A DNA stretch of 64,000 bases from a virus. Below, one piece after another: positions 6,537-58,703 of this stretch. Within the stretch, counting starts at the first letter, position 1, and each line of letters begins with the position of its first letter. Under the pieces are notes generated by a model. It searched no databases and was not told the DNA's origin. It was given only the letters and a program-made list of their open reading frames with translations. A program made the position numbers and the translations under genes. The stretch lies in the IMG/VR virus record IMGVR_UViG_3300046468_002660; one strand, written 5' to 3'.

Positions 6537-6544
6537 ATGATTTC

Positions 6545-8794: not shown

Positions 8795-8796
8795 TC

Positions 8797-15632: not shown

Positions 15633-15643
15633 TGGTTCTGTTT

Positions 15644-22086: not shown

Positions 22087-22452
22087 GGGGGTGTACAGGA
22101 TTCGATTGACATTGGATTCTTTCGCCGCAAGCAGGAGTTGTGTCTGGCTCCTTTACAAAGGCACAAATTTTACATGGCAACAAGTCACGTATTAAAGCTT
22201 ACTCGCCTCAAAGCGAAAAGCTTGCTCTAGCAGCTTAGTCTCTGCTACCTCGCAACTTTTGACGCAGATAAAAAGATTGCGGGGTCATCAATCTGCAAAA
22301 CAGATAAAAGTTTTCTTGTATCTTAAACTGTAAATAATTGAAACAAGAAGTTGGATGTTAATATCATAACTGTAAAAAAAATTGACTAAGCTTGTAGACG
22401 CGATTGCTTAAAGATGATCAAGACGCGGGTTCAAATCCCGCCACCTCCACCA
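22087..22452 (+). ncRNA. ssrA: tmRNA; tag reading frame 22176-22238, (A)GNKSRIKAYSPQSEKLALAA*
   Basis: 5' GGGGGTG pairs with 3' CACCTCC-ACCA including G3:U70; GGATTCGA after the 5' stem; T-arm GCGGGTTCAAATCCCGC; internal ORF ending LALAA-stop. Confidence 0.95.
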
Positions 22453-22475
22453 ATTTAAACTTTAAAATTAAAATT

Positions 22476-23756: not shown

Positions 23757-23795
23757 TTCGGTATTTTTTTGTGCCATAAAGTGTAAGTGTTTTGT

Positions 23796-26289: not shown

Positions 26290-27323
26290 TCGAAAAACAT
26301 TCAAAGCTTTTTGATCAATATCTAATAGAATTCCAAGAAGACATTAGAAGAATAGTTGGTAAATTTAAAAAAAGCTTTCACGCTCTTTCTGATGAGGAAA
26401 TTTATAGTGAATGTAATTTACATTTATTAAAAAACAAGGAAAAGATATTAAATTCTTTTCCTGACGATCAAGAGTTCAATCAATCAGAGTTTAAAAAAAT
26501 AGCATATCATTATGTAAAAAACGAATGTGTTTGGACTCACTACAGATTCATGAATAAATCTTATAACCGTCGCAAGCTTGACGGATATATAGAGACTGAC
26601 GATGGAACGAAAACTATTTTTGAAGCTGCTATTGAAACTCAAGGAAAAGAAAATGAGGACATTGATAGTGATTTAATATTTCATGCAGCTACCACTGATC
26701 AATTTTTTCATGTGCTCACAAAATATTCCTATCTTTTGACCGAGCAGGAAGTTGAAATTATTTCTTATATTCGTTCTGGTTTTAATCAAGATCAAATCGC
26801 TGAAAAACTAGAAGTTACGCATCAAGCTATATCTTTTTGTTATAAAAATATCCAAGCGAAATTAAAAAGTCATTTTAATTTTCATGATGTATTAAATGGA
26901 GGTTCAGTAAAGTTAATCACCAATGGGCAAAAAGCTATTGATTCTTTTTTTAATGTAGATCATCAAGAACCATCAATTAGCGAAGAAGATAAGCAAAAAA
27001 TTAAAAATTATATTCTTGAAAACCCTAAAACTTATACAGGTATAGAAATTAATAAAAAATTATTTAATAATAAATACAGTAATCAAAAAATCTGGGGAGC
27101 GATTAGAAGTTTAAAACTCACCCCTCTTGTAAAGAGCAGGAATCGTCCTTTCACAAACAAAGAAAGGGAATTAATTTTTTCTTGTTTTGAAAAAGGGAAA
27201 ACCGCTGAAGAAGTTGCAAAAATCATAGGCATTAAAACTACTTCAGCTAGAAGAATGAGAGAAGAGTTAGTTAAAAAAGGAAAACTCTTAAGGCTAAGTG
27301 AGCTTAGAAATAAAAGTTCTTAA
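26268..27323 (+). CDS. Sigma-factor-like protein with region-4 HTH and extra C-terminal HTH
   Basis: LTEQEVEII...GFNQDQIAEKLEVTHQAIS; GKTAEEVAKIIGIKTTS. Confidence 0.65.
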   Translation: MEHSKQIIEKHSKLFDQYLIEFQEDIRRIVGKFKKSFHALSDEEIYSECNLHLLKNKEKILNSFPDDQEFNQSEFKKIAYHYVKNECVWTHYRFMNKSYNRRKLDGYIETDDGTKTIFEAAIETQGKENEDIDSDLIFHAATTDQFFHVLTKYSYLLTEQEVEIISYIRSGFNQDQIAEKLEVTHQAISFCYKNIQAKLKSHFNFHDVLNGGSVKLITNGQKAIDSFFNVDHQEPSISEEDKQKIKNYILENPKTYTGIEINKKLFNNKYSNQKIWGAIRSLKLTPLVKSRNRPFTNKERELIFSCFEKGKTAEEVAKIIGIKTTSARRMREELVKKGKLLRLSELRNKSS

Positions 27324-27335
27324 ATTTCATTTTTG

Positions 27336-27382
27336 AAAAAAAAATATTCGACAAACCACTTAATAGTGGACTATATACATTA
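27336..27382 (+). repeat. 47-bp dispersed upstream element, copy 1 (copy 2 at 39310-39356)
   Basis: 41/47 identical; core AGTGGACTATATACATTA abuts the start codon. Confidence 0.85.
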
Positions 27383-33209: not shown

Positions 33210-33851
33210 ATGAAAAACAAAATCGTATCATTACTATTAGCCTTCGGGCTGTCTAACGCTGTTTTTGCAAATTCTGCAAAACTAGGATATGCATCTGATT
33301 ATTTTTATCGTGGTGTACAAAAGTCGGAAGAAGCTGTTCAAGCTTCACTTGCTTTGTCTGCCGACCTTGAAGGTGTAACTGTTTCCGCTGGAGCTTTTAC
33401 AAATCAATCGGTAAATACTGGATCTGATTCATATCAATTAACGCTTGGCGCTGAAAAGTCCTTGAATGAGCTTTTCTCTATTTATGGAGGCTTAAATCAC
33501 TTCGAGGACGTATCTGGAGAAGCTTTGTTTGAAGCTCAGATCGGCGTTCAGCTTAACGCATTGCTGTCTCCTTCTGTTAATGTATATCGTTCTTTTGACG
33601 ATGAATTGTATACATTTGAGGTTGGCGTAAACCATAAGTTTGATCTTGAATTAGCTAACTTATGCTTACACGCTTCCGCTGGCCAAACTGATCTGACAGA
33701 AGCTATAGATAGCGATTACTATGCTTTTGGGGCAAACGTTTCTCGAGATCTATCAGAAAATGCGTCGGTTGTAGTTTCTGCTGACCGTATTGATTCTGAT
33801 TTAATTGATTCAGAATGGGTGTTCGGTCTATCAGTTTCCACAAACTTTTAA
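33210..33851 (+). CDS. Outer-membrane beta-barrel protein, Gcw_chp/TIGR02001-like
   Basis: Signal peptide; YASDYFYRG; amphipathic strands; terminal Phe. Confidence 0.7.
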   Translation: MKNKIVSLLLAFGLSNAVFANSAKLGYASDYFYRGVQKSEEAVQASLALSADLEGVTVSAGAFTNQSVNTGSDSYQLTLGAEKSLNELFSIYGGLNHFEDVSGEALFEAQIGVQLNALLSPSVNVYRSFDDELYTFEVGVNHKFDLELANLCLHASAGQTDLTEAIDSDYYAFGANVSRDLSENASVVVSADRIDSDLIDSEWVFGLSVSTNF

Positions 33852-33870: not shown

Positions 33871-34134
33871 ATGAAAAATACACTAGATACAATCACTTGT
33901 GCTGTAAAAGGTATTGCAGCCACATTGCTTAGCGTTCTTGGACTTCTTGTTATTGTCCAAGCTGTTTTTGGTTCATCTGCTCCTGTGGATGTGATCGGAA
34001 ATCTACAAGCTTTAATTGGAGGGTTTGTTGGGCCAGAGACTGGCTTCACGTCTTTCCTCACTCTTGTTCTTGTAGTAGCTTTGTTAGCTAAGAATAGTTC
34101 CTGCTCTCAAAGCAAATGCGACAAAGAAGGTTAA
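33871..34134 (+). CDS. Small inner-membrane protein
   Basis: Two to three hydrophobic helices. Confidence 0.75.
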   Translation: MKNTLDTITCAVKGIAATLLSVLGLLVIVQAVFGSSAPVDVIGNLQALIGGFVGPETGFTSFLTLVLVVALLAKNSSCSQSKCDKEG

Positions 34135-34155: not shown

Positions 34156-34182
34156 AAGGGGGGCTTTGCCCCCCTTTTTTTT
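34156..34182 (+). terminator. Rho-independent terminator
   Basis: AAGGGGGGC-TTT-GCCCCCC followed by T8. Confidence 0.9.
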
Positions 34183-34197
34183 GTGTAATTATGTTTA

Positions 34198-35814
34198 ATG
34201 AAAAAAATAACAATACGCACGGGATCTAACCTAAGCCCTATACTTCAGTCAACTGTTAATATTCCGCAAGCTTTTACAGAACTTGTTAAAAATTCGATTC
34301 AAAATTTATCTACAATAGTAAGTATTGAAATCAAAAATGATACCATTTTGATTGCAGACAACGGTATTGGTTTTAATTATTTAAATGACAGTGATGGCAA
34401 GAATGATTTTGATCGTTATTTTGTTTTTGGGAATTCTTATGATGCAACCCGTGGAGAAGGTTTAAGGTTAGGGCATATGGGTTTAGGTGGAAAATTATCT
34501 AACGACAAATTATCTAAAGCAGGTGCGCCAAATTGGTCTTTGTATACAAAAAATAAAACGGGTGAAGCTTTTATTGTAAACTACAATCCACCTAAATCAG
34601 AATTCTTAGATGATTATTCCCCTGAAATTCAACCTGTTAACTCAAAAGACTCGTTGGTAAACACAACCACAGGAACTACAGTTGTCATTAATGATGTTAA
34701 TGATATTTTTCATAATAACAATCGCTTAATCCATGAAATAAAAGAAGAGTTGAGGAATTTCTTCGGGACTTTAGTTACTTCAATCCATCAAGAAGGAAAA
34801 AATCTTGAAGTTATTTTCAATGGTGAATCTTTAAATTTTGATTATCGTTTACCTGGAATATCTTTCGCTCCTTTGGTGAAAAGTTTTAGTTATGACTATT
34901 ATGGTGAAGAAAAAACATCTGAAATAACTTTTAATTTATCTTATGTAAAGACAAGAGAATTTTTAAAAGACCATCCTGTGCAGAATGTTCAAATAGTTTC
35001 TAATGTAAAAATCAGTGACTTGTATTTATCAAACTCAGATCTTTTAGATCTTTTAACAGAAGATGAAGATGAAAAACTTGAAATTATGAATTTGTTTCAT
35101 AATACGATTGGTTATGTAAGTTGTCCAGATATAAGTTCTGTTTTGGATGATTCAGGAATGCCAGCAAAAGATCTCTCACATCATAGTCTACGTTCGGATC
35201 ATCCGATCACAACCGCTTTCTTGGAAAAAACCTACGAAGTTATCATTGATCTACTTAGAGCTTATAAAAAACTTAAACGAGAAAACGAATTCAAACATTT
35301 TAATAATTTTGTAGGTCAAATTACTGATTTCTTAAAGTCAACAAATATGTTAAGTAAAGATATGCTAGTCACAATCCGTAAACCATCAAAAAACCTTAAC
35401 GATGTAGAGCGTTCAGCGTCTTCGGCTATACGCAATGCTAGAGAATTCAATCCAAAAAACAAAACCCAAAAAGATAGATCTAATTGGGAAACAGAAGTAA
35501 AAGCTAGTGAAAATTATTTAAACCAAGAAGTAATTGATTACAATATTATTGATTTTGGTGAAGGTAACGAAGAAGAAATGTCGAAGCATTTGAATGCTAA
35601 TAATTTTCAAATTTTAATTAATTCTACAAATTATAAATATCAAAAAGTAAACAATTCCAAAAACCCTCTTTTTATAATGCTACATCTTTCTGAATGTTTA
35701 ATTTCGGAAATATGTACTTTTCATAACCCAAGCGTTACAAGAAAAGAAATTGAAAAATGTGTCGCTAACTTTTATAAAAATTATTTTGATGAAATGTTAA
35801 CTTTAGTAAAGTAA
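34198..35814 (+). CDS. GHKL (HSP90/MutL/MORC-like) ATPase
   Basis: FTELVKNS, IADNGIGF, GHMGLGGK, TGTTV. Confidence 0.8.
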   Translation: MKKITIRTGSNLSPILQSTVNIPQAFTELVKNSIQNLSTIVSIEIKNDTILIADNGIGFNYLNDSDGKNDFDRYFVFGNSYDATRGEGLRLGHMGLGGKLSNDKLSKAGAPNWSLYTKNKTGEAFIVNYNPPKSEFLDDYSPEIQPVNSKDSLVNTTTGTTVVINDVNDIFHNNNRLIHEIKEELRNFFGTLVTSIHQEGKNLEVIFNGESLNFDYRLPGISFAPLVKSFSYDYYGEEKTSEITFNLSYVKTREFLKDHPVQNVQIVSNVKISDLYLSNSDLLDLLTEDEDEKLEIMNLFHNTIGYVSCPDISSVLDDSGMPAKDLSHHSLRSDHPITTAFLEKTYEVIIDLLRAYKKLKRENEFKHFNNFVGQITDFLKSTNMLSKDMLVTIRKPSKNLNDVERSASSAIRNAREFNPKNKTQKDRSNWETEVKASENYLNQEVIDYNIIDFGEGNEEEMSKHLNANNFQILINSTNYKYQKVNNSKNPLFIMLHLSECLISEICTFHNPSVTRKEIEKCVANFYKNYFDEMLTLVK

Positions 35815-35881: not shown

Positions 35882-37168
35882 ATGGAAGATAAAAATATAG
35901 TTTATGTCGGAATGAGTGCCGATTTAATTCATCCTGGTCATATAAACATACTAGAGTCAGCTTCTAAATATGGTTTAGTAACAGTTGGACTTCTAACAGA
36001 TAAAGCTATTGCAAGTTATAAAAGGCTTCCAGCCTTAACTTACGATCAAAGAAAAAGAGTTATCGAAAATTTCAAATTTGTATCTAATGTTATTCCTCAA
36101 ACAACTTTAGATTATAGTGAAAATCTAAATAAAATTCGACCTAAATATGTTGTTCATGGAGATGATTGGCGAACAGGGATTCAAAAAAGTAGTCGCCAAA
36201 AAGTCATTGATTTATTAGATTCTTGGGGTGGCGAATTAATTGAGCTCGAATATACTCCAGGTATCTCTTCAACTCAATTACATCAAAGCGTTCAAGAGGT
36301 TGGGGTTACCCCACAGATTAGACAAGATAAATTAAAAAGATTATTAAAAGCTAAAGATTATGTTCGAGTTATTGAGTCTCATAATGGACTAAGCGGTTTA
36401 ATAGCTGAAAATGTAAACTTTGAAGGTAAAGAATTTGATGCAATCTGGCTTTCTAGCTTAACAGATTCTACAGTTAGAGGAAAACCTGATATAGAGCTGC
36501 TAGATCGATACGGAACTTTAAATGATATTATTGAGGTAACAACTAAACCCATAATTGTAGATGGAGACACTGGAGGAAAAATAGAGCACTTTTCTTTCAC
36601 TGTTAAAACTTTAGAAAGATTAGGGGTTTCCGCTATAATTATTGAAGACAAAATTGGATTGAAAAAAAACTCCTTGCTTGGAACTGAGGTTAAACAAGAG
36701 CAAGATTCAATAGAAAATTTTTGCAGTAAAATTAAAGCGGGGAAACATTCACAACGCTCAGAAAACTTCATGATTATTGCGAGGGTGGAGAGTTTTATTT
36801 TAGGGAAAACAGTGGAAGATGCAATTGATCGTGCAAAAGCTTATATAGAAGCTGGCGCTGACGGAATTATGATTCATAGCAAAGAGTCCAATGGTGAAGA
36901 AATTATTGATTTCTGTAATGAATACAGCCTCCTGAACCAAAGAGTACCACTTGTTGTTGTGCCATCTTCATACAATCATTTCACAGAACAAGAATTGAAT
37001 GATCTTGGGGCAGATGTTATTATTTACGCAAACCATTTACTAAGAAGCGCTTATCCTAGTATGGTTAAAACAGCAGAATCGATACTTAAACACTCTCGCT
37101 CTCTAGAAGCTTCAAATGAGTGCATGTCTATAAAAAATATTTTAAATTTAATTCCAGGAACGAAATGA
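35882..37168 (+). CDS. pepM: Phosphoenolpyruvate mutase with N-terminal cytidylyltransferase domain (AepX-type)
   Basis: DLIHPGH NTase domain; [14 protein letters not shown] and diagnostic [10 protein letters not shown] (EDKx5NS). Confidence 0.95.
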
Positions 37169-37560
37169 AAAATATTTTATTTAATAAATTAATCGAGGAG
37201 GGGTATAATTTTTTTTGTGGAGTTCCAGATAGCGGCTTGAAAGAATTCCAAAATTCGATAATAGAATCTAATTTTAAAAACGTTATTGCTACAAACGAAG
37301 GGCAAGCTATTGGAATTGCTGTGGGAGCGATGATGACTGGCTTAAAACCTTGCGTCTACATGCAAAATTCTGGTTTAGGAAATGCAATTAATCCTTTGAC
37401 AAGTTTATGCGCTCCTTTTAACCTAAATCCTTTGTTAGTCATAGGTCATAGGCATACATTACCTCAACACAAAATAATGGGAAAGGTTGATGAAGATTTG
37501 CTGGATTTAATAGGTTACAAAAATTACCTTTTAATAAAAGGAGATAATAATGAAAAGTAG
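37165..37560 (+). CDS. Phosphonopyruvate decarboxylase, alpha subunit
   Basis: [37 protein letters not shown]; ATGA-coupled to pepM. Confidence 0.9.
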
Positions 37561-38008
37561 AAAAGAAGCTTTATTGGAAATATTTAATTCTCACCCCAAA
37601 AACTCTCTCTTTGTTATTTCTACTGGGTTTTTATGCAGATCTGTCTATAATTTATTCCCTGATAAAAAAAATATTTTTTATATGCAGGGTAGTATGGGTC
37701 TTGCTCCTTGCATTGCTCTTGGTGTTGCCCTTAACACTTCAAAAGATGTTGTAGTTATTAATGGAGATGGAGCGCATTTAATGCACTTAGGTATAACTCA
37801 TACTATTAGAGATGAAAACCTCAAAAATTTATATCACTATATTCTTGACAATGGATCTCATGAATCTGTTGGCGGTTATAAATGCGCATCCTTAGAAAAA
37901 TCTTATTGTGGGGTTAATAAAATATTTAAAATCTCTAAAGATGGCAAATCTTCACGGGTTGGTTTTGATTTTGAAGATAATAAAAACAATTTTGTAGAAT
38001 CGATATGA
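37550..38008 (+). CDS. Phosphonopyruvate decarboxylase, beta (TPP-binding) subunit
   Basis: STGFLCR, FYMQGSMG, GDGAHLMHLG, DNGSHESVGG. Confidence 0.9.
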   Translation: MKSRKEALLEIFNSHPKNSLFVISTGFLCRSVYNLFPDKKNIFYMQGSMGLAPCIALGVALNTSKDVVVINGDGAHLMHLGITHTIRDENLKNLYHYILDNGSHESVGGYKCASLEKSYCGVNKIFKISKDGKSSRVGFDFEDNKNNFVESI

Positions 38009-38763
38009 CAGATTTTTTTGTATGCTCAAAATCTACTAAAAAATATATAAAAGGCGAAAACTATTATTTAGTTACCGCTCCCCCAACTAAAGATATATTA
38101 AAAAAAGCTCAAAAATTCTCTAATGTCATTGCAATTGGTGGTGGAGCCGTAATCGATACAGCTAAAATTTTATCAAAAACCCCAATCACTTGTTACCCGA
38201 CAACAGCTGCTGGAGCCTCAGATACCAGCCACTCTGTTTACTGGGATGGTTCGAATAAAAAAAATTTTAATTCATTTTTACCAAAACAAGTTTTTTTAAA
38301 AAAAGAATATGTAGAAACTCTCCCAAGCCAGTTAGTATTGGAAACTAAAAGTGACTTAATAGCTCATTGTCTTGATGTTATTTGGTCGAAAGATAAAACA
38401 GAAGATAGTGAATTTTTTGCGAAAAAAGGTTTGAGCATAATATCAAAAGACCCCACTAATCTTGCATTAATTAAAGCTGGTCGCTTTGGAGGAAAAGCTA
38501 TAGAGATTACCCCTACCACCATTCTTCACTCTCTGTCTTACCCATTAACAGGTATATATAATATCTCTCACGGTTTAGCTTTATCTTTTCTCATACCAAA
38601 AGTTTCGTCTTTAATGAATTTTGACCCTCCGAATATAAATTACACAAAAAACTTGCCTGGAATAGACTGGGATATTGTTGTCAGAAAAGCAATGCAATAT
38701 CCAAAGTTTCATAATACTCACAAAAAACTTAGTGTTAAAAATTTAACAAGCGCTTTAATTTAG
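38005..38763 (+). CDS. Iron-containing alcohol dehydrogenase, putative phosphonoacetaldehyde reductase
   Basis: AIGGGAVIDTAK, PTTAAG, HSLSYPL..HG; operon with pepM/ppd. Confidence 0.8.
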   Translation: MTDFFVCSKSTKKYIKGENYYLVTAPPTKDILKKAQKFSNVIAIGGGAVIDTAKILSKTPITCYPTTAAGASDTSHSVYWDGSNKKNFNSFLPKQVFLKKEYVETLPSQLVLETKSDLIAHCLDVIWSKDKTEDSEFFAKKGLSIISKDPTNLALIKAGRFGGKAIEITPTTILHSLSYPLTGIYNISHGLALSFLIPKVSSLMNFDPPNINYTKNLPGIDWDIVVRKAMQYPKFHNTHKKLSVKNLTSALI

Positions 38764-38786: not shown

Positions 38787-39014
38787 ATGGATGATGATTT
38801 TTATATTGGTGGCCCTCGAGATTATGATGAGCAAACAGATGCTTTAAGATTTGATCTTGATGATTTAATAGCTAGATATTTTGAAGAATTTGATCTAAAT
38901 ACTCTTACTATTATTGGAGCTTTGCAAGAAAAAGTTGAAGAATTATGTTCTGGAGGTAATATAGAATTTGAAATGGATGATGATTTTTTTGACGATGAAA
39001 AAGATGAAATTTAA
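38787..39014 (+). CDS. Small very acidic protein
   Basis: 75-aa Asp/Glu-rich ORF. Confidence 0.7.
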   Translation: MDDDFYIGGPRDYDEQTDALRFDLDDLIARYFEEFDLNTLTIIGALQEKVEELCSGGNIEFEMDDDFFDDEKDEI

Positions 39015-39297
39015 GGAATACTATAAACACTATTTAAGCTTACATCAAAACAAAACTTGTATATTATTGCACTACATAGGTCAATGGGCTACAATTGGAG
39101 TTATTTATTTAATTATAAAATATAACTTGTGGTTATTGATACCCATTATACCTTTTGTAGTTTATCCATTTGCTTGGAGCGGACATTATTTTTTTGAAAA
39201 AAATAAACCTGCAGCCTTTAAAAACCCTTGGCTTGCAAAGCTTTCTGACTGGAGAATGTTTTCTGAAATTACCATCGGTAAAATTAAACTTTTTTAA
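39004..39297 (+). CDS. DUF962/Mpo1-like membrane protein
   Basis: YLSLHQN....LHYIG...AWSGHYFFEKNKPAAF..P. Confidence 0.8.
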   Translation: MKFKEYYKHYLSLHQNKTCILLHYIGQWATIGVIYLIIKYNLWLLIPIIPFVVYPFAWSGHYFFEKNKPAAFKNPWLAKLSDWRMFSEITIGKIKLF

Positions 39298-39309
39298 AAT
39301 TCAATATGT

Positions 39310-39356
39310 AAAAAAAAATATTCCACGAAAACCTTAACAGTGGACTATATACATTA
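39310..39356 (+). repeat. 47-bp dispersed upstream element, copy 2
   Basis: 41/47 identical to 27336-27382. Confidence 0.85.
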
Positions 39357-39358: not shown

Positions 39359-40186
39359 ATGAAAATACTAGTAACAGGACATAAAGGGTATATAGGATCC
39401 CATCTTTATACCGAACTTAAGCAGCGTAAAGATATTACTGAGATTATAGGTGTAGATCTTCAAGATGGAGATGATATTCTTTATTGTTTACCAGATAAAG
39501 ATGTGGATGTTGTATTTCATTTTGCAGCTTTTCCTAGGGTAGAGTACTCTGTTTTAAACCCAAGCTATACCTTTAAACAAAACTGTTTAGTTACTTCTAC
39601 ATTGCTTGATTGGTCTAGAAAACATAATGTCAAAAAATTTATTTTCTCTTCTTCTTCTGCAATTATGGGGGATGGTGACGGAAAACCTAAATCCCCATAT
39701 GGTTTACATAAACTAATTTCTGAGATGGAGTGCAACTTGTATCAAGATCTATACGGAATACAAACGACATGTTTAAGATATTTTAACGCGTATTCGGAAG
39801 ACCAACCTTATGGAGGAGCCTACACAACTGCAATATCAGCATGGATGGAAATGATTCGTCAAAATAAGCCTTTAAGACTTGATGGAGACGGGGAGCAGAC
39901 TAGAGATTTTGTTCACGTTAATGACATTGTCTCAGCAAATATTCTAGCTATGGATCATGACAATATGGATTCTTCCTACTATGATGTTGGATGTGGAGAG
40001 TCTTTTTCGTTAAATTATATTAAAAAATTTATAGATTCTAAAATTGATGTTGAGTGGGATTTTGCTCCACCTCGAAAAGGTGACGCTAGAAACACTTTAG
40101 CTAATATATCACCACTAAAAGATCGTGGCTGGCTCCCTAAAGTTTCTTTTGATGAGGGATTGCAAAAATGTTTCGGCAACTTTTAA
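39359..40186 (+). CDS. NAD-dependent epimerase/dehydratase
   Basis: TGHKGYIG, SSSA, YGLHK, LRYFNAY, GDGEQTRDFVHV. Confidence 0.92.
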   Translation: MKILVTGHKGYIGSHLYTELKQRKDITEIIGVDLQDGDDILYCLPDKDVDVVFHFAAFPRVEYSVLNPSYTFKQNCLVTSTLLDWSRKHNVKKFIFSSSSAIMGDGDGKPKSPYGLHKLISEMECNLYQDLYGIQTTCLRYFNAYSEDQPYGGAYTTAISAWMEMIRQNKPLRLDGDGEQTRDFVHVNDIVSANILAMDHDNMDSSYYDVGCGESFSLNYIKKFIDSKIDVEWDFAPPRKGDARNTLANISPLKDRGWLPKVSFDEGLQKCFGNF

Positions 40187-40429: not shown

Positions 40430-40801
40430 ATGACAATTAGAAGTTTAATTTCAGAATGTAATTATAAATACTTTTTTAATGCTATCTACAAGTATTACTT
40501 AAAAGATAATACTCATGATTTTGTGAGAGGGTTTGACACCCTGCTTTTTAATTATTTTAAGTTGACAAGGAACAATAAGTTAATTGAAGATTTGGATCAA
40601 AATTTTCAGCTATACCTTTCAAATCCTTCTGATCAGATTATTGATGTCAGCGTTTTGGATCTTGCTTTAGATGAACTGCAAACGACTGATAAATTCAAAT
40701 TAGATCAAGTCTTAAATTTTGAAATTATTACCTCTGTGCAATTAAACAAACAAGAAATTTTAGCTCATTGTATCTGGGCCTTTAAAAGTGAGCTTGTATA
40801 A
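40430..40801 (+). CDS. Hypothetical protein
   Basis: 123-aa ORF. Confidence 0.65.
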   Translation: MTIRSLISECNYKYFFNAIYKYYLKDNTHDFVRGFDTLLFNYFKLTRNNKLIEDLDQNFQLYLSNPSDQIIDVSVLDLALDELQTTDKFKLDQVLNFEIITSVQLNKQEILAHCIWAFKSELV

Positions 40802-41294
40802 CCTCCCAACTCACATAAAATCTCCACAAATTGTTTATGGTGTTGTGGAAATAGAAGAAGGTCATAAAAACAAGTATGAGTACGACCCTAATTTAGGCGG
40901 TTTTCTTTATGATCGATGTCTTACTTCAGCAATGGTATATCCTGCAAGCTATGGTTTCATACCAAACACTTTATGTGAAGATGGAGATCCCTTAGATATA
41001 TTGATTATCAGTCCAGAACCAATAAAACGGGCCACTATTGTTGAGTCGAAAGTTTTGGGTGTTTTAGATATGGAAGATGAAGGAGATAAAGATTTTAAAA
41101 TCTTGGCTGTTCCTAATTTTTACACTCATAAATATTCTAACTTACAATCCATTGATAAAGCTTTTTTAGAGATATGTAAAAACTTTTTTGCGCATTATAA
41201 AGATTTATCAGCTTCTGGAGATAGGGTAAAAGTTTTTGATTGGCATGACAAAAAACATGCGCAAAACATTATAAAAGAAAGGATTATAAAATGA
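40788..41294 (+). CDS. ppa: Family I inorganic pyrophosphatase
   Basis: KYEYD, YPASYGFIPNT, DGDPLD, DEGDKDFK, FFAHYK. Confidence 0.95.
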   Translation: MSLYNLPTHIKSPQIVYGVVEIEEGHKNKYEYDPNLGGFLYDRCLTSAMVYPASYGFIPNTLCEDGDPLDILIISPEPIKRATIVESKVLGVLDMEDEGDKDFKILAVPNFYTHKYSNLQSIDKAFLEICKNFFAHYKDLSASGDRVKVFDWHDKKHAQNIIKERIIK

Positions 41295-41585: not shown

Positions 41586-41672
41586 GTTTTTAAAAAAAAT
41601 AGAAATTTTTACTTATTTTCTTATGATATATTGCAGAAAGAAAGTTTTAAAAATTTAGTAAAACAAAGAATT

Positions 41673-42398
41673 ATGACAAACGATAATCCTTCATCACTCA
41701 AAAATATTTTTTGTGTATCGTACGGTCATGAAGTGAGTATTAAATTCGACACTTCTCCAGAATTTGATTTGGTGGTTCTTAATTATAGCGATGAAGGGTC
41801 AGAAAATAAATTTCCTCATGATTGCACTCATGAGATGCACGTTAAGACAGAATGTAAAGGCGATCTAATGTTGTTGGCATTAAATTTTGTAAACTTAAAT
41901 TATAAAGATTACTCTAGAGTATGTGTGTTTGATGATGATATTACAATAACAATTTCACAGATCAATCAATTATTCGCAATAGCAGAACAGCACTCGCTCG
42001 ATCAATTTGCTCCATCATTATCACGAGACAGTGTCTTTACTCATGCACACACGTTGTGTCACAACAAGGGTGTGCGGAAAGTGCAATGGGTGGAAGTTAT
42101 GATGCCTGGTTTCAGCAAAAGATTTGTTGACCAGATGTTACCATTGTATAATGACTTATATGATACACACAACTTAAAAAGTTCATGGGGGCTGGATACT
42201 CATGTATTCCCAGCAGTCAATAGCAGCATCAATGGCGGTTGTGCGATTATAGATGACATAATTGTGAAGCATCATAGAGCAATACGTAGTCAAGATATAC
42301 AGTTTTCTAATGGTCGATACGCCTCTCAAGAAGCGGCGATAATATGGAGCAAAATAAATGAATTTTCAAAGAAACACCTTTTTCAAAAACATGATTAA
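41673..42398 (+). CDS. DUF707-like glycosyltransferase
   Basis: FDDDI, WVEVMMPGFS, WGLD, AIIDD..V.H. Confidence 0.65.
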   Translation: MTNDNPSSLKNIFCVSYGHEVSIKFDTSPEFDLVVLNYSDEGSENKFPHDCTHEMHVKTECKGDLMLLALNFVNLNYKDYSRVCVFDDDITITISQINQLFAIAEQHSLDQFAPSLSRDSVFTHAHTLCHNKGVRKVQWVEVMMPGFSKRFVDQMLPLYNDLYDTHNLKSSWGLDTHVFPAVNSSINGGCAIIDDIIVKHHRAIRSQDIQFSNGRYASQEAAIIWSKINEFSKKHLFQKHD

Positions 42399-43116
42399 CA
42401 ACTTTTTTAATAAAATTTTTGTGATTAATCTTCAGAGATGTTCTGATCGAAAAAATCACGTTGAGAAAATAATGTCTGAACAAAATGTTGACTTTGATTT
42501 TGTGGAAGCTGTTGATGGAGAAGCTGAATTTAAAGATCACGAATATTATGTCGATTTTTTAAAAAAAAATTGTTATAACTGCAACAACTGGAACCAAAGC
42601 AAAGCTCAACTTGGTTGTTGGTTAAGTCATATAAAAATTTGGGAAAAAATTGTAGCAGAAAACATTGAATCTTGTTTAATTTTAGAAGATGATTTTCTTT
42701 TTAATAAAAACGCAAGTGTTGAAGAAACATTAAAAGATCTACCTAAAGACTGGAACATCTTTATGGCTGGTTATGGTAGCGCTCAGATTTCAGATGTGAT
42801 AAATGACAATATTGTTAGGCTTACCACTCCTTCTTGCACTCATGCTTATGCTTTAAAATATGAAGCTGCAAAAATTATTTTAGATAATTGCTATCCATTA
42901 ATGGGAGCTTTAGATAGTTTCACTGGGCATATATTTTTTACTAGAGACAATAATAAAATCTTTAAAAATGGTTTTGAAACTAGGTGTAATTTTACCGCAG
43001 AAGAAATGCAAAAAAGAAACCCTAAATATAGTCTAAATTCTTTGGATAATCTATTTAGTTACGCACCAAAAGAACCTCTTTTTACCCAAGGAGGTTCTAA
43101 TTACTCTACAATTTAA
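42391..43116 (+). CDS. Glycosyltransferase family 25
   Basis: FVINL.R..DR, EAVDG, GCWLSH..IW, LILEDD, THAY. Confidence 0.9.
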   Translation: MINNFFNKIFVINLQRCSDRKNHVEKIMSEQNVDFDFVEAVDGEAEFKDHEYYVDFLKKNCYNCNNWNQSKAQLGCWLSHIKIWEKIVAENIESCLILEDDFLFNKNASVEETLKDLPKDWNIFMAGYGSAQISDVINDNIVRLTTPSCTHAYALKYEAAKIILDNCYPLMGALDSFTGHIFFTRDNNKIFKNGFETRCNFTAEEMQKRNPKYSLNSLDNLFSYAPKEPLFTQGGSNYSTI

Positions 43117-43120
43117 TTCT

Positions 43121-44119
43121 ATGAATTATTTAATTAACTTTGCTCATGGCACTTACTTAGGAGCTCAAAAACAAAACTCTAAGACAGGGATAGAATCTGG
43201 ATGTTTCGATGCTGTTATTCAATATAAATATAAAGACATTGAAGAAAGTTTTGAAGTTGAAAATTCGGAAATTTTAAATGGCGGTAATAGCAAGGGTGCT
43301 GGTTTTTGGCTCTGGAAACCTTATTTTTTACTTAAAACTTTAAAATCCGTCAATGAAGGAGATATAATTTTTTATTCTGACTCTGGAGCCTCCTTTGTGA
43401 GAGATGTTAAACCCTTGATAAATGAAGTTAAAAATTCCCCCCAAGGTCTCGCTTGTTTTCATTTAGGTGGAGATCATAAAGAAGGTCTTTGGACTCAAAA
43501 AACTACGCTTTATGGAATGGAGATGGATACTGAAGAAATAAGAAGTTCAACTCAAATAATGGCGAGTTTTGTCGTTGCAAAAAAATGCGCAAGTGCAATA
43601 TCTATTATTGAAGATTGGTTATCTTTTTGCAAAAAACCTGAGCTTATACGTGATAATAAAAATCTTGGTAAAAACTATCCTGGATTCAGATCTCATAGAC
43701 ATGATCAATCAATTTGGAGTTTAATTTGCAAAAAGCATAAAGTTAAGATTCTTCCCGATCCAACTCATTGGGGATTACATTATAATGGAGATCGCAAAGA
43801 CTTTTTTATATTTCATCATCGCCAAGATCCTCCACCAAAAGAAATTCCTTTGGATTTAATCAATATCGCAAATAATTTCAATAAAATAGATTTAAAAAAT
43901 CATCCAGCTCTAGGAACTTGGAATTATCACAATGTTTTTTATCGTGATGTCTCTGAAGACGGTTCTGTTGTACTTAGGAAAAATGACGATATTATATGGA
44001 CTAAAAATTGCATTTCTAAAACTAAAGATTCTTTTTTATTGGAAGACGATCTTTTTCATCAATTTGTTGATGGAAGTTTAAACATAGAGGGCAAATACAA
44101 AGGAGCAAGAGTTCAATGA
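43121..44119 (+). CDS. Putative glycosyltransferase
   Basis: GFWLWKPY, YSDSG, HRHDQSIWSL. Confidence 0.6.
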   Translation: MNYLINFAHGTYLGAQKQNSKTGIESGCFDAVIQYKYKDIEESFEVENSEILNGGNSKGAGFWLWKPYFLLKTLKSVNEGDIIFYSDSGASFVRDVKPLINEVKNSPQGLACFHLGGDHKEGLWTQKTTLYGMEMDTEEIRSSTQIMASFVVAKKCASAISIIEDWLSFCKKPELIRDNKNLGKNYPGFRSHRHDQSIWSLICKKHKVKILPDPTHWGLHYNGDRKDFFIFHHRQDPPPKEIPLDLINIANNFNKIDLKNHPALGTWNYHNVFYRDVSEDGSVVLRKNDDIIWTKNCISKTKDSFLLEDDLFHQFVDGSLNIEGKYKGARVQ

Positions 44120-45069
44120 ATTTTGAATTTAAAAAATTAGATTATAAAAATCTTTTAAATAAGTATTCTATTGAAATAGCTAGCAATGAACCCTCAGAAA
44201 GAGAGTTTGCCTATGCTAAAGTTTCTTTTAATCAACTTTCTGAAATTGATTACTCTATTGTGATGCCAGTGTTCAATCAAGAAGATTTAATTAAAAAACA
44301 TATAGAATCTATATTAAAATATACTAAAGACAATTATGAACTAATTTTAATATTGGATTTTTGTGTAGACAACACAGAAAAAGAAATTTTAAATTTTTTC
44401 TCGAACTACGCTAATAGTTACAATAATTTAGAATCTGTTACTATTGTTAAGCACTGTAAATTTCCAATTTTCGAAGCTTCTTGTGATAACGTTGGCTTTA
44501 TGCTTGCTAAAGGAAAATTCCTACTAGAAATACAATCAGATATGGAAATGACTGAAAGTGGTTATAATTTACAATTAAAAAGACCTTTTGATCATTTTGA
44601 TAACTGTATAGGTGTTTCTGGAAGATGCACGGCTAACTTTTCTAAAAGTTGGCTTACTGGTTCCAAATGTCACAGCACCTTAACTAAAGTATCTGACACT
44701 GGTACTAGTAGAGATATTTTTTATCAACATGATACTTGCTGTCGAGGTCCATTATTACTAGATAGAGAAAAATCTGCAAGCTTATCTTTTTTAAATGAAA
44801 AAGATTTTCATCTAGACGATGCTGATCATCACTTTTTCGCAAGAGCTTCAGCTGAAAACTATATATGTGGATACATGGCAATTGATTTTTATTCTAATCT
44901 AAACATGGGATCTTCAAGAAAGAGGGGTAAATTACCTCGTGATTCATATTTAATAAATGAAGAATACCTACATTTAAGACAGCAAAACTATAGTGTTAAT
45001 TTTTATGATGGCACTAACTTTATACAAATGCCAAATGTCATTAAACACGAACTTATAAAAAATAATTAA
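44116..45069 (+). CDS. Glycosyltransferase family 2
   Basis: SIVMPVFNQE, ELILILD.C.D.T, A.GKFL. Confidence 0.8.
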   Translation: MNFEFKKLDYKNLLNKYSIEIASNEPSEREFAYAKVSFNQLSEIDYSIVMPVFNQEDLIKKHIESILKYTKDNYELILILDFCVDNTEKEILNFFSNYANSYNNLESVTIVKHCKFPIFEASCDNVGFMLAKGKFLLEIQSDMEMTESGYNLQLKRPFDHFDNCIGVSGRCTANFSKSWLTGSKCHSTLTKVSDTGTSRDIFYQHDTCCRGPLLLDREKSASLSFLNEKDFHLDDADHHFFARASAENYICGYMAIDFYSNLNMGSSRKRGKLPRDSYLINEEYLHLRQQNYSVNFYDGTNFIQMPNVIKHELIKNN

Positions 45070-45077
45070 AAAATAAT

Positions 45078-45869
45078 ATGGAAATCACAGATTCAGAAAA
45101 AGCAAAATTACTAAACGCCTTTAGAAGTTCGTCTGCAAACGACGAATCTTTTAAAAACTTATGGTATAAAGGAGCCTCTTTATATATTCCACAAATTAAT
45201 GAACTTTTAAATTTAACTCCTGATAATTCGTTTGAATTAAAAGATATTGATCATTTTAAAAACGAAGATCAAAATTATTTAGGGGATATTTTCTCCAAGT
45301 ATAAATCTGATAAATCTACACAACATAATTATCATATTTTATATTCTTTTATCTTAAACTCTCTAGGTAAAGACAAGGAATTAAACCTCCTTGAGATAGG
45401 TCTGGGCACAAACAACGGCAGTCTTGTATCGTCAATGGGTGCTGACGGCACTCCAGGAGCTTCAACTAGAGCTTTTAAAGAGTATTTACCTAATGGTAAT
45501 ATATATGGAGCTGATATAGATAAAGAAATTTTATTTGAAGAAGATAGAATTAAAACTTGTTATGTAGATCAACTTGAAATTGATTCTTTCTCCAACATCA
45601 CTGAAACTTTTGGTGATATAAAATATGATTTAATTATAGACGATGGACTTCATTCAACTGGCGCTAATCTTAATACATTACTCTTTGCTCTAAATAATGT
45701 AAAGGGTGGGGGCTGGATAGTTATAGAAGACATAGGATTTGAAACTTTTGGTTTATATAACAACTGGAAGATAGTTCATTATATATTGTCTAAACTACCC
45801 TTGGAAGTTTACATGGTCAAGGCTAGGCATCATTGCTTATTTTGTGTCCGTAAAAATTATATTAATTAA
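45078..45869 (+). CDS. Class I SAM-dependent O-methyltransferase
   Basis: SDK...HNY, LLEIGLG, YGADID, DLIIDDGLH, GGWIVIEDI. Confidence 0.8.
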   Translation: MEITDSEKAKLLNAFRSSSANDESFKNLWYKGASLYIPQINELLNLTPDNSFELKDIDHFKNEDQNYLGDIFSKYKSDKSTQHNYHILYSFILNSLGKDKELNLLEIGLGTNNGSLVSSMGADGTPGASTRAFKEYLPNGNIYGADIDKEILFEEDRIKTCYVDQLEIDSFSNITETFGDIKYDLIIDDGLHSTGANLNTLLFALNNVKGGGWIVIEDIGFETFGLYNNWKIVHYILSKLPLEVYMVKARHHCLFCVRKNYIN

Positions 45870-45905
45870 TTGCATATCCTCGTTCTAGAAGTGTAAGTAT
45901 GTTTA

Positions 45906-46619
45906 GTGAATTATATTAGTTACAGTTTGTGGGGGGGTGAGTCTATTTATAATCAAGGTGCCATTCAAAACGCCAAACAAATCTCCGAAATATACCCAAA
46001 TTGGAAAATGGTAGTTTTTCACTCCCAAAAAACCTCCAAAAAAATTTTAAACGAATTAGTATCGTTAGATTGTCTTTGCATAAAAGCTGACGAGTCTTTT
46101 TATGGAATGTTTTGGAGGTTTTTTGCTCATGATTTAGCTGATGCTGATTATATTATCTTTCGAGATGTTGATTCTAGATTGAGTTTGAGAGAAAAATTTG
46201 CGGTTGAAGAGTGGATTGCTTCTGGTAAAAGCGCTCATTGCATTAGAGACCATCCTTTGCATAGAATCCCAGCGAGATGCGCTTACCCTTCTTTCTTGGG
46301 AGGCATGTGGGGAATAAAAAAAAGCTCTTATCCATCATTGATTAGTGAAATTAAAAAATCTCCACTTTCAAAATGCTTTGCTGGGGAAAATAAAAACTCT
46401 CGTGCGCTATATGGCTTTGATCAAGAATTTTTGCAAAACATTTATAATTATTTTAATAACAAAAATGACATTTTTATCCATGATGAATTTGGTGATGGCA
46501 ATAAAATAGATTACCCTAGAGATAATTATGCCTTTATAGGAGAAAGAATGACAGTTAATAATCTACCAACTTGTTCAGACAGAAACTATATTAAAGCTTG
46601 GTACAATGAAAATAAATAA
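45906..46619 (+). CDS. Putative glycosyltransferase (paralog of 6545 N-terminus)
   Basis: ISYSLWG, FWRF, RDVDSR, REKFAV.EW, GGMWG, DQ.FL. Confidence 0.6.
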   Translation: MNYISYSLWGGESIYNQGAIQNAKQISEIYPNWKMVVFHSQKTSKKILNELVSLDCLCIKADESFYGMFWRFFAHDLADADYIIFRDVDSRLSLREKFAVEEWIASGKSAHCIRDHPLHRIPARCAYPSFLGGMWGIKKSSYPSLISEIKKSPLSKCFAGENKNSRALYGFDQEFLQNIYNYFNNKNDIFIHDEFGDGNKIDYPRDNYAFIGERMTVNNLPTCSDRNYIKAWYNENK

Positions 46620-47364
46620 AGTTATACTCTCCTCAAATAACAACCCTAACTATATAGAGTTTTGGCCTTCGGTTTACGAAACTTGGTCTAAACTTGGGGT
46701 TGAAGCTTATTTATTTTACATCGGCAAAAGCTCTAAACATTTAAACTACTCGGAAAACGTTCTTACTTTCGATATTGACCTTATGGGTGTAAACGATTGT
46801 TTTGCATCTCAATGTTTAAGGTTATTGGGGCCAAGCCTTTTCCCTGATGACTTTGTTATTATATCTGATGTGGACATGTATCCGTTAAGTTATGATTATT
46901 TTCACAAAAGTGTAGAAAACCTTAAAGATGATTTATTTATTAATTATAGAGGCGGTGTAGTGAGAAGTTCAGAGTTGCCAATGTGTTATAATTTAGCCAA
47001 AGGTTCGACTTGGAGGGAAGTTTTTGAAATTGAAAGCGAAGACTTGGCAAATTCTTGGAAATCTATTTTTCGAGACATTTTAATAAAATGGTTTCCAGTT
47101 GAATATAAAACTCCTTGGGAGGTTCACCAAGGCTACCTCTGGGAAACTGATCAATCTCAACTCAGAAGTCACATTAATAAATGGAACGCAAAGACAAAGA
47201 GATTTTATCAACTTTATGATCGTGATACTAATTTTTCCAGGCTAGATCATAGAGGTGGCAGATTACATGATTCGTATACTGATGGTAATACTGATTTTTC
47301 GCCCGCAAGACCCTTTTCTGAACATGAAGATCGCATTTTAAAAGTTATAAATCAAATAGTATGA
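46606..47364 (+). CDS. Putative glycosyltransferase (DxD)
   Basis: Y.EFWP, SDVDM, WETDQ; within glycan cluster. Confidence 0.55.
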   Translation: MKINKVILSSNNNPNYIEFWPSVYETWSKLGVEAYLFYIGKSSKHLNYSENVLTFDIDLMGVNDCFASQCLRLLGPSLFPDDFVIISDVDMYPLSYDYFHKSVENLKDDLFINYRGGVVRSSELPMCYNLAKGSTWREVFEIESEDLANSWKSIFRDILIKWFPVEYKTPWEVHQGYLWETDQSQLRSHINKWNAKTKRFYQLYDRDTNFSRLDHRGGRLHDSYTDGNTDFSPARPFSEHEDRILKVINQIV

Positions 47365-48143
47365 ACAACTTTATAGAAATTAATAAATTCTCACATCTTC
47401 ATGACGGCGATAAAGTTTTCTTTTGTAAAACTGATTTTTTGAACAACCAATTTCGTGAAATTTCTAAACTAAAACATGACGTTCTTTTAATTTCTGGGAA
47501 TTCAGATTATTGTATTACTGACAATCATATTAAAGAGCTGCCAAGTAACGTTAAGTTTTGGTTTGCTCACAACTGCTTGGTTGATGATGACAGAGTTCAT
47601 CCACTTCCAATGGGTATAGAAAATCAATCAGAGTCAGCCTTGGGTGCAAGACATGGAGTATCTTGGGGAGGGAGAAAACGAGACATCTTATTATCTAACA
47701 TAAAACAAAAACCTCCTACAAAATTTGCTTATTCAAATTTTCGAATTTGGACAAACTCTGAACATAGATCCTTAATTCGTGATATCAGCATTGAAGCTGA
47801 TTATATTGACTGGGAAAATCCATCTCTTACAAATGAAGGCTTTTATAATAAATGTTTAGATTACGAATTAGTTGTTTGTGCTCAGGGTAATGGCCCAGGA
47901 GATAATCATAGAATCTATGAAACTCTTTATCTTGAAAGAATTCCTATTACTTTTAATCAGTGTATGTACAAAAAATTGCATCATAACTTTCCTGTTATTT
48001 GCCTAGATGATCCCAATAAATTAAAAGATAAAAAATTTTTAGATGAAGAGCTAAAGAAAATAAAATCGAAAACATTTAATAGGAACATGTTACACCCAGA
48101 ATGGTGGATTAACGAAATAAAAAATAAAATAGAATTATTATGA
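47361..48143 (+). CDS. Exostosin/GT47-like glycosyltransferase
   Basis: PLPMGIEN, CAQGNG..NHRIYETLYL.RIPI. Confidence 0.6.
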   Translation: MNNFIEINKFSHLHDGDKVFFCKTDFLNNQFREISKLKHDVLLISGNSDYCITDNHIKELPSNVKFWFAHNCLVDDDRVHPLPMGIENQSESALGARHGVSWGGRKRDILLSNIKQKPPTKFAYSNFRIWTNSEHRSLIRDISIEADYIDWENPSLTNEGFYNKCLDYELVVCAQGNGPGDNHRIYETLYLERIPITFNQCMYKKLHHNFPVICLDDPNKLKDKKFLDEELKKIKSKTFNRNMLHPEWWINEIKNKIELL

Positions 48144-48556
48144 AATCAATCAATGATGTTAAACAAGGTAAAAATGTAAAAATTAGTGACTTTACAAATC
48201 TTTATGGCTGTGAATTGGAGGATGATGTTTTCGTCGGTCCCTTTGTTGAAATACAGTCTAACGTAAAAATCGGAAAATCAACAAGAGTTTCATCACATTC
48301 TTTTATTTGCTCGAATGTAAATGTAGGCAAAAATTGCTTCATAGCGCATGGAGTTATGTTTACAAATGATAAATTTACAGAAAACAAAAGTGAGTGGATA
48401 GAAAGACCGACCCAAATTGGAAATAATGTCAGAATTGGATCTAATGCAACTATATTACCAGTGACTATTGGAGATAATGTTATTATTGGTGCAGGAGCTG
48501 TTGTTACAAAAGATGTTCCTAGTAACTCTGTAGTGAAAGGTAATCCAGCAAAATGA
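48140..48556 (+). CDS. Hexapeptide-repeat sugar N-acetyltransferase (WbpD/FdtC-like)
   Basis: NLYGC, GPFVEIQ, GVMFTND, GAGAVVTKDVP, GNPA. Confidence 0.9.
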   Translation: MKSINDVKQGKNVKISDFTNLYGCELEDDVFVGPFVEIQSNVKIGKSTRVSSHSFICSNVNVGKNCFIAHGVMFTNDKFTENKSEWIERPTQIGNNVRIGSNATILPVTIGDNVIIGAGAVVTKDVPSNSVVKGNPAK

Positions 48557-58701: not shown

Positions 58702-58703
58702 AT

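Follow-up and report, generated by a model that had tools for sequence, protein, structure and literature searches.

The window analysed here is a 64,000-nucleotide stretch of the IMG/VR virus record IMGVR_UViG_3300046468_002660, read as one strand from 5' to 3'. It holds a compact four-gene cassette predicted to make a phosphonate, 2-hydroxyethylphosphonate (HEP), and to activate it as the cytidine monophosphate (CMP) conjugate CMP-HEP. The open reading frame (ORF) listing places four co-directional genes on the plus strand, at 35882-37168, 37120/37165-37560, 37550-38008 and 38005-38763, in agreement with the four overlapping genes described in a first-pass annotation of this DNA. They are assigned as follows.

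35882-37168, plus strand: Fom1-like fusion of a cytidylyltransferase (CT) and a phosphoenolpyruvate (PEP) mutase, CT-PepM; 428 aa; PF01467 and PF13714
37165-37560, plus strand: PpdA, alpha half (PYR domain) of a phosphonopyruvate decarboxylase (Ppd); 131 aa; best family TIGR03297
37550-38008, plus strand: PpdB, beta half of Ppd (PP domain, binding thiamine pyrophosphate, TPP); 152 aa; best family TIGR03297
38005-38763, plus strand: mini Fe-dependent alcohol dehydrogenase (ADH); 252 aa; best family TIGR03405

The genes are tightly packed. pepM and ppdA share an ATGA overlap (37165-37168), ppdA and ppdB overlap by 11 nt with the Shine-Dalgarno-like AAAGGAGA preceding ATG 37550, and ppdB and adh meet in a further ATGA (38005-38008). 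Because overlapping start and stop codons join all four genes, they are predicted to be translationally coupled. PpdA most likely starts at ATG 37165, giving 131 aa, as gene callers set it in independent assemblies. GC content is uniform across the locus.

Fused cytidylyltransferase and PEP mutase

The first gene encodes two predicted enzymes in one chain. It matches PEP_mutase (PF13714, E 9e-56) and exceeds the cut-off of the NCBIfam PEP mutase equivalog TIGR02320 (386.3 against 319.55 bits); the next families, Pphn_pyruv_hyd (135.6 bits) and prpB (105.6 bits), both stay far under their own cut-offs. The diagnostic EDKx5NS motif of PEP mutase is present, as the first-pass annotation had reported for this fusion, and the domain matches the solved PEP mutases 5unc and 1m1b. 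Fused to its N-terminal side is a CTP_transf_like domain (PF01467, E 8e-12) with HPGH (HxGH type) and TPGISST nucleotide-binding motifs. This domain aligns at ~68% identity over 137 residues (E 6e-62) with Protein Data Bank (PDB) entry 5x3d, which we take to be the cytidylyltransferase domain of Streptomyces Fom1. For the C-terminal domain (~residues 150-427) the predicted reaction is that of PEP to phosphonopyruvate, and for the N-terminal domain (~residues 4-140) that of HEP and cytidine triphosphate (CTP) to CMP-HEP and pyrophosphate (PPi).

The formation of CMP-HEP from CTP and HEP is the reaction attributed to the Fom1 cytidylyltransferase (Cho et al. 2017, as cited in PMC6697681), and the ~68% identity of the two domains is the reason for predicting CMP-HEP as the cassette product. 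Scanning every ORF of at least 300 aa disclosed no 2-aminoethylphosphonate (AEP) transaminase, MpnS/HEPD, HppE or B12 radical S-adenosylmethionine (SAM) gene in the 64-kb window, and the other head groups that such enzymes would provide were rejected for want of a gene. With a Fom1-like CT domain and none of these other head-group enzymes in the window, the predicted end product is CMP-HEP.

Split decarboxylase and shortened alcohol dehydrogenase

Genes 2 and 3 match TPP_enzyme_N and TPP_enzyme_C, respectively. Both score best as phosphonopyruvate decarboxylase (TIGR03297) and not as sulfopyruvate decarboxylase subunits, with 116 against 77 bits (alpha) for PpdA and 111 against 83 bits (beta) for PpdB, which bears out the earlier call of a split Ppd. 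In an alignment of 90 viral and cellular Ppd sequences, at least 90% share residues E45, QNSG67-70, H102, GD203-204 and N232, and PpdB keeps the GDG...N TPP-Mg motif. The enzyme is not the usual single chain of ~375 aa; it is divided into 131 and 152 aa (283 aa in total against ~377), and in comparison with a Bacteroidales Ppd the halves are devoid of the inter-domain linker (L032 residues ~132-170) and of a C-terminal segment (~313-346). Genes 2 and 3 are predicted to form a two-subunit phosphonopyruvate decarboxylase that makes phosphonoacetaldehyde.

The fourth protein fits the Phn_Fe-ADH family TIGR03405 best, at 252 aa against ~375 for the canonical enzyme. The chain falls short of the profile by about 75 positions at the N terminus and also at its C-terminal end, and the full two-domain architecture of Group III Fe-ADHs (~355-390 aa) is not attained. 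The Gly-rich NAD(P) motif and the Asp-His-His-His metal site are present, and GGG45-47, D51, D117, H121, H175 and H189 are invariant in 56 homologues. A structure model is confident and compact (predicted local distance difference test, pLDDT, 95.2; predicted template-modelling score, pTM, 0.91) and superposes on 1o2d, FucO and sulfoacetaldehyde reductase with template-modelling (TM) scores of ~0.8 normalized to the query and ~0.55 to the targets. The model suggests a reduced Fe-ADH fold with a trimmed but complete-looking catalytic core, and the protein is predicted to be a phosphonoacetaldehyde reductase yielding HEP. What Ppd and ADH have lost is the inter-domain linker and peripheral segments; the active-site motifs are spared.

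A phage genome

The window encodes a UvsX-like recombinase, DnaB, primase, exonuclease, clamp loader, ClpB-like ATPase and sigma-like proteins, together with a DnaE-type polymerase that has separate PHP-like and exonuclease pieces, one tRNA and one transfer-messenger RNA (tmRNA); ribosomal genes are absent from the 64 kb. The DnaE replicase appears to be split over three plus-strand genes.

15632-16402, plus strand: PHP-like piece
16347-17030, plus strand: exonuclease subunit
17027-19570, plus strand: polymerase core

In IMG/VR, over 580 relatives of this DnaE were found at 59-79% identity, in records that reach 205 kb; among these, records of 146-205 kb are complete according to CheckV. Replication-gene synteny was checked in 80 of these loci; the adjoining genes are syntenic, and the three-gene layout is kept, in 76-80 of the 80.

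Terminase and virion genes are absent from the 64-kb window. Collinear relatives of the clade encode the large terminase subunit TerL, recognized as Terminase_6N in G016, G034 and G035 and as phrog_2 in G016 (E 1.5e-26). The HK97-type capsid Pfam found no match in the relatives, and neither did the Gp23 and nucleocytoplasmic large DNA virus (NCLDV) capsid profiles, whose controls were equally silent, which makes these last two negatives uninformative. In the two nearest relatives, G006 and G007, collinearity with the window extends over 3.3-34.1 kb and again over 54.1-64 kb. The cassette and its flanks recur in four independent assemblies, the fullest of which spans the upstream 538-aa gene to the pyrophosphatase, and an identical ADH protein is on record in a contig of 160,389 bp. 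GenBank phages gave no nucleotide match to window 30-50 kb; full-length PepM matches among them are confined to two small human-faecal 'Bacteriophage sp.' contigs (50-53% identity), and the 'PEP mutase' of Vibrio phage Va2 aligns at 29% identity over half of the protein.

We conclude from these comparisons that the source is, as far as sequence can indicate, an uncultured aquatic tailed phage with a genome of roughly 160 kb, non-chimeric at the cassette. The first-pass annotation had likewise proposed a virus, pointing to phage-type flanking genes that share promoter motifs with the cassette. The replication module, the missing ribosomal genes, the terminase of the relatives and the backbone synteny on both sides agree with the viral origin and the phage-type flanks; the shared promoter motifs lack statistical support, as sigma-70-like matches do not exceed chance (46 against 37.6 +/- 7.4 in shuffles).

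A distinct lineage of short enzymes

The cellular comparison comprised the 80 nearest loci in GTDB species genomes (Bacteroidota, Ignavibacteriota, Gammaproteobacteria, Patescibacteria, archaea and others), to which the window PepM is 60-69% identical. Most of these bacterial and archaeal loci keep the order CT-PepM, Ppd, ADH. Wherever the contig contains the whole gene, Ppd is encoded by one ORF, typically of ~372-400 aa, and ADH typically has ~360-400 aa. The same pepM-ppd-adh synteny, which the first-pass annotation had expected in viral catalogues, was found on ~20 IMG/VR contigs, with Ppd split (~130 and 158 aa) and an ADH of ~255-275 aa; L018 is the sole exception among them, with a fused 345-aa Ppd and no ADH. 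That annotation had overlooked both the miniaturization of Ppd and Fe-ADH and the place of the cassette in a variable cargo island, described below.

Phylogenies of ADH and Ppd separate the short forms. A branch with 100% support divides all 23 short ADHs from the other sequences, and the 22 split Ppds group in a single clade (support 96%). In the unconstrained PepM tree the short-form copies fall in at least four places, and a single clade is not rejected by the approximately unbiased (AU) test (p-AU 0.47); PepM is too conserved to resolve a viral grouping. The gammaproteobacterium Psp_hYS2021 (locus L046, 2.06-Mb chromosome) contributes the cellular PepM nearest that of the window in the tree, and at L046:7294-9405 it carries Ppd and Fe-ADH in one open frame of 703 aa.

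Among 90%-identity clusters, 334 match the mini ADH; the best 120 of the 334 are all 247-276 aa long, several of them from Tara Oceans. Mini-ADH clusters in the ESM Atlas are labelled 93-100% viral, mostly Uroviricota. The viral-type set includes three metagenome/assembly contigs, L116, L198 and L200, and the viral nature of L116 and L200 is not established; L198 has phage-like neighbours (an Mtd_N tail-fibre domain, ribosomal protein S21 and a ClpB-like gene). Streamlined marine bacteria such as SAR11 lie outside the cellular sample, and the label 'virus-specific' is therefore provisional. Judged by length and phylogeny, the split Ppd and mini Fe-ADH represent one distinct lineage, newly recognized here.

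The cassette is not a fixed part of this phage clade. No PEP mutase was found in any of 42 searchable relatives of the phage, 11 of which are at least 90% complete, and the cassette is therefore mobile cargo. The window-type DnaE was not detected in the cassette-bearing records G001, G003, G005 and G048, nor in G002, and phrog_2 TerL was not detected in G001, G003, G005 and G048; cassette-bearing G002 and G004 have a terminase of their own. The cassette therefore appears to be spread across several unrelated viral lineages as variable glycan-island cargo. One carrier, G001 (the record of L004), is 189,182 bp long with direct terminal repeats and is rated 100% complete; it matched none of Terminase_6N, phrog_2 TerL, HK97 capsid, Gp23, NCLDV capsid or the window-type DnaE.

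Beside the cassette in four related viral loci lie B12-binding radical-SAM enzymes of ~507 aa (L013:6485-8026, L015:8680-10203, L016:6185-7708 and L020:12938-14458). B12-binding radical-SAM proteins are the enzyme class of Fom3, which methylates CMP-HEP. By this analogy, some phages may make a hydroxypropylphosphonate head group.

A variable island with glycan genes

Backbone synteny with G006 and G007 stops at 34134, the end of the conserved backbone gene 33871-34134, which is closed by a terminator-like hairpin that marks the left edge of an island. In these two nearest relatives the island is replaced by ~11 kb of other DNA, and nearly all of its genes are absent there. The left edge of the island and its features besides the cassette are the following.

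34156-34176, plus strand: strong intrinsic-terminator-like hairpin; 9-bp stem with 7 G-C pairs, then a T-run
34198-~54100, no strand: variable cargo island, ~20 kb; right edge between 53681 and 54164
34198-35814, plus strand: 538-aa protein, first island gene, directly upstream of the cassette; weak, sub-threshold HATPase_c_3
38787-39014, plus strand: 75-aa ORF; no family match; 63-71% identity in G006/G007
38977-39297, plus strand: Mpo1-like/DUF962 small membrane protein; PF06127, E 4e-27; two hydrophobic segments
39359-40186, plus strand: NAD-dependent sugar-nucleotide epimerase/dehydratase; PF01370, E 1e-46
40788-41294, plus strand: inorganic pyrophosphatase; PF00719, E 1e-45
41631-50524, plus strand: glycan assembly and sugar-modification block; includes a DUF707-like gene and three genes without family
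42358-43116, plus strand: glycosyltransferase family 25 (GT25)
44116-45069, plus strand: GT2
45078-45869, plus strand: methyltransferase-like gene
48140-48556, plus strand: hexapeptide acyltransferase
48553-49434, plus strand: GFO/IDH/MocA oxidoreductase
49418-50524, plus strand: DegT aminotransferase
50600-51592, plus strand: LicD-family phosphotransferase; PF04991, E 1e-25, 91.3 bits against a gathering threshold of 22.6

The 538-aa protein has no PHROG match and is absent from five relatives; its junction with pepM is the same in independent assemblies. Downstream of the cassette, the 75-aa ORF is one of the few island genes kept in cassette-free relatives. It was considered as a paralogue of the Mpo1-like protein and rejected, as the two share no similarity. 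The Mpo1-like protein belongs to an ordinary bacterial family, and its gene recurs near the cassette in three other viral loci (L013, L015 and L016). A pyrophosphatase gene also adjoins the cellular cassette in L032. Within the glycan block, the acyltransferase, oxidoreductase and DegT genes constitute an amino-sugar trio.

The LicD-family protein is the candidate enzyme, by analogy with bacterial phosphonyl tailoring, that would transfer HEP from CMP-HEP to the hydroxyl group of a sugar or glycolipid. For such pathways PMC6697681 proposes LicD-like enzymes as the transferases. Against the Mf1 cholinephosphotransferase model the protein scores E 4e-14, under the cut-off. LicD-like matches also occur near the homologous cassette in several of the 80 cellular loci and in three ORFs flanking viral cassettes. 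In 12 non-redundant IMG/VR loci, the genes flanking the cassette are mostly sugar-nucleotide epimerases/dehydratases, GT2 glycosyltransferases, methyltransferases and UDP-glucose dehydrogenases. L116 and L198 (6434-9179 in each), which represent another cassette-bearing lineage, have a TagF-like Glyphos_transf gene directly upstream of CT-PepM, and an ORF of ~200 aa between pepM and ppdA, with a faint methyltransferase match in L198.

A 78-nt repeat, whose copies are 79% identical, occurs at 27305-27382 and 39279-39356. Each copy ends right ahead of a start codon, that of a 179-aa backbone gene (27382) in one case and that of the island epimerase (39359), an unrelated gene, in the other; the repeat is probably a shared promoter or 5'-leader.

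Proposed pathway and alternatives

With moderate confidence, we propose that the island cassette makes CMP-HEP, from which HEP is then moved to a glycan by a LicD-type enzyme. The PEP mutase domain would convert PEP to phosphonopyruvate, and the two-subunit TPP decarboxylase would draw this unfavourable step forward by forming phosphonoacetaldehyde, which the mini Fe-ADH would reduce to HEP. The Fom1-like CT domain would then join HEP and CTP into CMP-HEP; the neighbouring pyrophosphatase would clear PPi and so pull nucleotidyl-transfer reactions, CMP-HEP formation included, towards product. The island LicD would most likely move HEP onto a sugar built by the island glycosyltransferases and sugar-modifying enzymes, and the outcome would be a phosphonate-tagged glycan produced in the infected cell. 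The series from PEP through phosphonopyruvate, phosphonoacetaldehyde and HEP to CMP-HEP had been anticipated in the first-pass annotation and is supported by hidden Markov model scores, catalytic residues and the CT identity to Fom1; the glycan attachment suggested there gains plausibility from the LicD gene and the glycan island. The acceptor could be a protein of the virion that is glycosylated in the cytoplasm, or else a glycan or glycolipid of the host envelope reached through host export. Hypermodified DNA was also considered as the target and judged unlikely, because the island holds a set of several glycosyltransferases and sugar-nucleotide enzymes.

Several observations weigh against this proposal. 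Each Ppd half, and even their summed 227 bits, remains below the 312.5-bit cut-off set for the single-chain enzyme, and the ADH reaches 69 bits against a cut-off of 423.7. Ppd and ADH thus score below these cut-offs, and each is shorter than the canonical enzyme by roughly a quarter to a third, so that their activity and substrate are predictions. The LicD match covers only profile positions 1-57 of 227, and the gene lies 12 kb from the cassette. The window has no polytopic membrane protein and hence no flippase, polymerase or lipid-carrier priming transferase, and no ABC exporter was found in it either.

The low scores and the short chains are also the grounds on which the cassette could be read as a degenerate passenger, the short Ppd (283 against ~377 aa) and ADH (252 against ~375 aa) being inactive remnants of a bacterial operon from which no phosphonate is made; both are indeed far shorter than all 80 cellular counterparts. 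Decay of this kind is hard to reconcile with the conservation of the short forms as intact ORFs in ~20 viral contigs and over 100 protein clusters, their catalytic residues being invariant, with single well-supported viral clades in both the ADH and Ppd trees, with a confident and compact ADH model, and with deletions that take the linker and peripheral segments and leave the active-site motifs in place. We regard inactivity as quite improbable. If the enzymes are active, their product might still serve as a free small molecule during infection, an antimetabolite or a phosphorus store in place of a glycan tag; a fosfomycin-like antibiotic, a 2-hydroxypropylphosphonate derivative, methylphosphonate and hydroxymethylphosphonate are the candidates. 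Such a role would suit the correspondence of the first four activities to the early fosfomycin steps of Fom1, Fom2 and FomC, the B12-binding radical-SAM enzymes (~507 aa) beside the cassette in L013, L015, L016 and L020, and the Mpo1-like gene after the ADH, whose Pfam family is named for an Fe(II) dioxygenase. The window itself, however, holds no B12/radical-SAM, HppE-, MpnS- or HEPD-like gene among its ORFs of at least 300 aa, the cassette is surrounded by glycan genes and LicD, as it is by glycan genes in 12 other viral loci, and CMP activation feeds a transferase in the characterized tailoring pathways described in PMC6697681. A free product is thus unlikely.

A different objection is that the locus may be cellular or mis-assembled, either a bacterial surface-polysaccharide island joined to phage DNA or part of a small-genome bacterium. 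Cell-like genes are present in the window (the DnaE-type polymerase, ClpB-like ATPase, tmRNA, pyrophosphatase, DUF1501 protein and porin-like gene), PepM is 60-69% identical to bacterial PepM, and relatives of the DUF1501 protein are labelled as metagenome-assembled genomes (MAGs) of Verrucomicrobiota. Against this stand both cassette-side junctions, identical in four independent assemblies, the phage backbone synteny that resumes on either side of the island, the uniform GC content, and relatives that are CheckV-complete IMG/VR records of 146-205 kb encoding terminase. Moreover, the split Ppd and mini ADH occur in none of the 80 nearest cellular loci, and the ESM Atlas assigns its mini-ADH clusters to viruses at 93-100%. 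A cellular or chimeric source is scarcely credible on this evidence, and HEP synthesis for glycan tagging by a phage remains the reading that we favour.

Other features of the window

Glycan enzymes are not restricted to the island. Three large plus-strand proteins are encoded at 4812-10755, upstream of the replication genes; one of 749 aa has a domain in common with island gene 45906-46619, and one of 652 aa ends in a GT10 fucosyltransferase-like domain. An adenosine 5'-phosphosulfate (APS)-kinase-like domain is fused to a nucleotidyltransferase-like domain at 23787-24599 (plus strand), and a sulfotransferase is encoded separately at 57039-57704 (plus strand); the phage may also make 3'-phosphoadenosine 5'-phosphosulfate (PAPS) and sulfate a glycan.

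The tmRNA at 22087-22452 (plus strand) is full-length and one-piece (Rfam RF00023, 118 bits) and was missed by ARAGORN. Its 3' end is overlapped by the ORF called from 22404, which encodes a DUF1501 protein (22404-23756, plus strand; Pfam E 2e-111). As its relatives are 426-432 aa long, the gene probably starts later than 22404. Its closest named relatives, at 71-73% identity, carry labels of Verrucomicrobiota MAGs, a weak hint at the host, unless those MAG bins hold phage contigs. A weak TorF/Gcw_chp porin-like protein (33210-33851, plus strand; NCBIfam E 1e-6, below the cut-off) is conserved in G006 and G007; were the phage to carry a barrel of the outer-membrane type, a Gram-negative host would be indicated. 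A minus-strand block at 58276-60048, conserved in relatives, contains an ATE_C domain (58892-59662), which is an arginyl-tRNA-protein-transferase-like C-terminal domain, together with GTP-cyclohydrolase-like and SAM-decarboxylase-like genes.

Implications and comparison with known systems

A phosphonate-tagging phage would extend phage glycan chemistry to phosphatase-resistant C-P compounds, with consequences for the stability of virions, the masking of receptors and superinfection exclusion. The short forms of Ppd and Fe-ADH, which are much smaller than any of their sampled cellular counterparts, may serve enzymology. According to PMC8931226, methylphosphonate and 2-HEP rank first in abundance among the phosphonates of marine high-molecular-weight dissolved organic phosphorus (HMW-DOP), and a widespread phage HEP cassette would be a further possible marine phosphonate source. 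A bolder and rather doubtful proposition is that the miniaturized HEP pathway, met here solely on contigs of viruses and uncultured assemblies, circulates as mobile cargo among several unrelated aquatic phage lineages and makes infected cells or virions a real source of the HEP esters of marine HMW-DOP. If so, metagenomic pepM counts credited to bacterioplankton would include viral copies. A separate count of viral HEP cassettes would be feasible, as their split Ppd and mini ADH set them apart from all 80 sampled cellular loci.

No published report of phage-borne phosphonate synthesis was found, in a search with subscription journals outside its coverage; the sole viral precedent found is GCF 881, a cluster for AEP that lies on the contig of an NCLDV (giant virus) MAG and is described in PMC8942020 (Li and Horsman 2022). 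The same study counts HEP-type neighbourhoods and records no Ppm in 364 huge-phage genomes or RefSeq viruses. Marine surveys, which take pepM as their marker, credit production to bacteria and archaea without mention of viruses, and in word searches of these papers no viral source of pepM turned up.

Both the NCLDV cluster and the present cassette are virus-borne Ppm/Ppd systems, and the former lies beside amino-sugar genes and was read as encoding a viral phosphonoglycan. The NCLDV, however, infects eukaryotes and has a Ppm-Ppd fusion and an AEP transaminase, whereas the cassette here belongs to a tailed phage and follows the HEP route. Bacterial Pnt pathways, as outlined by Rice et al. 2019 (PMC6697681), combine a Ppm fused or adjacent to a cytidylyltransferase with Ppd, an enzyme for the head group and phosphotransferases of LicD type, by which surface glycans are decorated. 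The logic of making a phosphonate, activating it with CMP and transferring it by a LicD-type enzyme would be common to both; characterized Pnt systems use AEP and a PF12804-type PntC, in contrast to HEP and a PF01467-type CT here, and the present carrier is viral, with Ppd and ADH of separate, miniaturized lineages.

Another close counterpart is the early fosfomycin pathway of Streptomyces wedmorensis, which has the same enzyme set, including the CyTase-PEP mutase fusion (Fom1, the Ppd Fom2 and the Fe-ADH FomC), and, according to PMC6697681, the same product as predicted here, CMP-HEP. The window is without equivalents of Fom3 and Fom4, its Ppd is divided over two genes, its Ppd and ADH are ~25-33% shorter, and the genes lie in a phage glycan island instead of an actinomycete antibiotic cluster. 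The predicted chemistry is that of the known early fosfomycin or HEP-type tailoring route, from which the present cassette departs in its phage carrier and its shortened enzymes.

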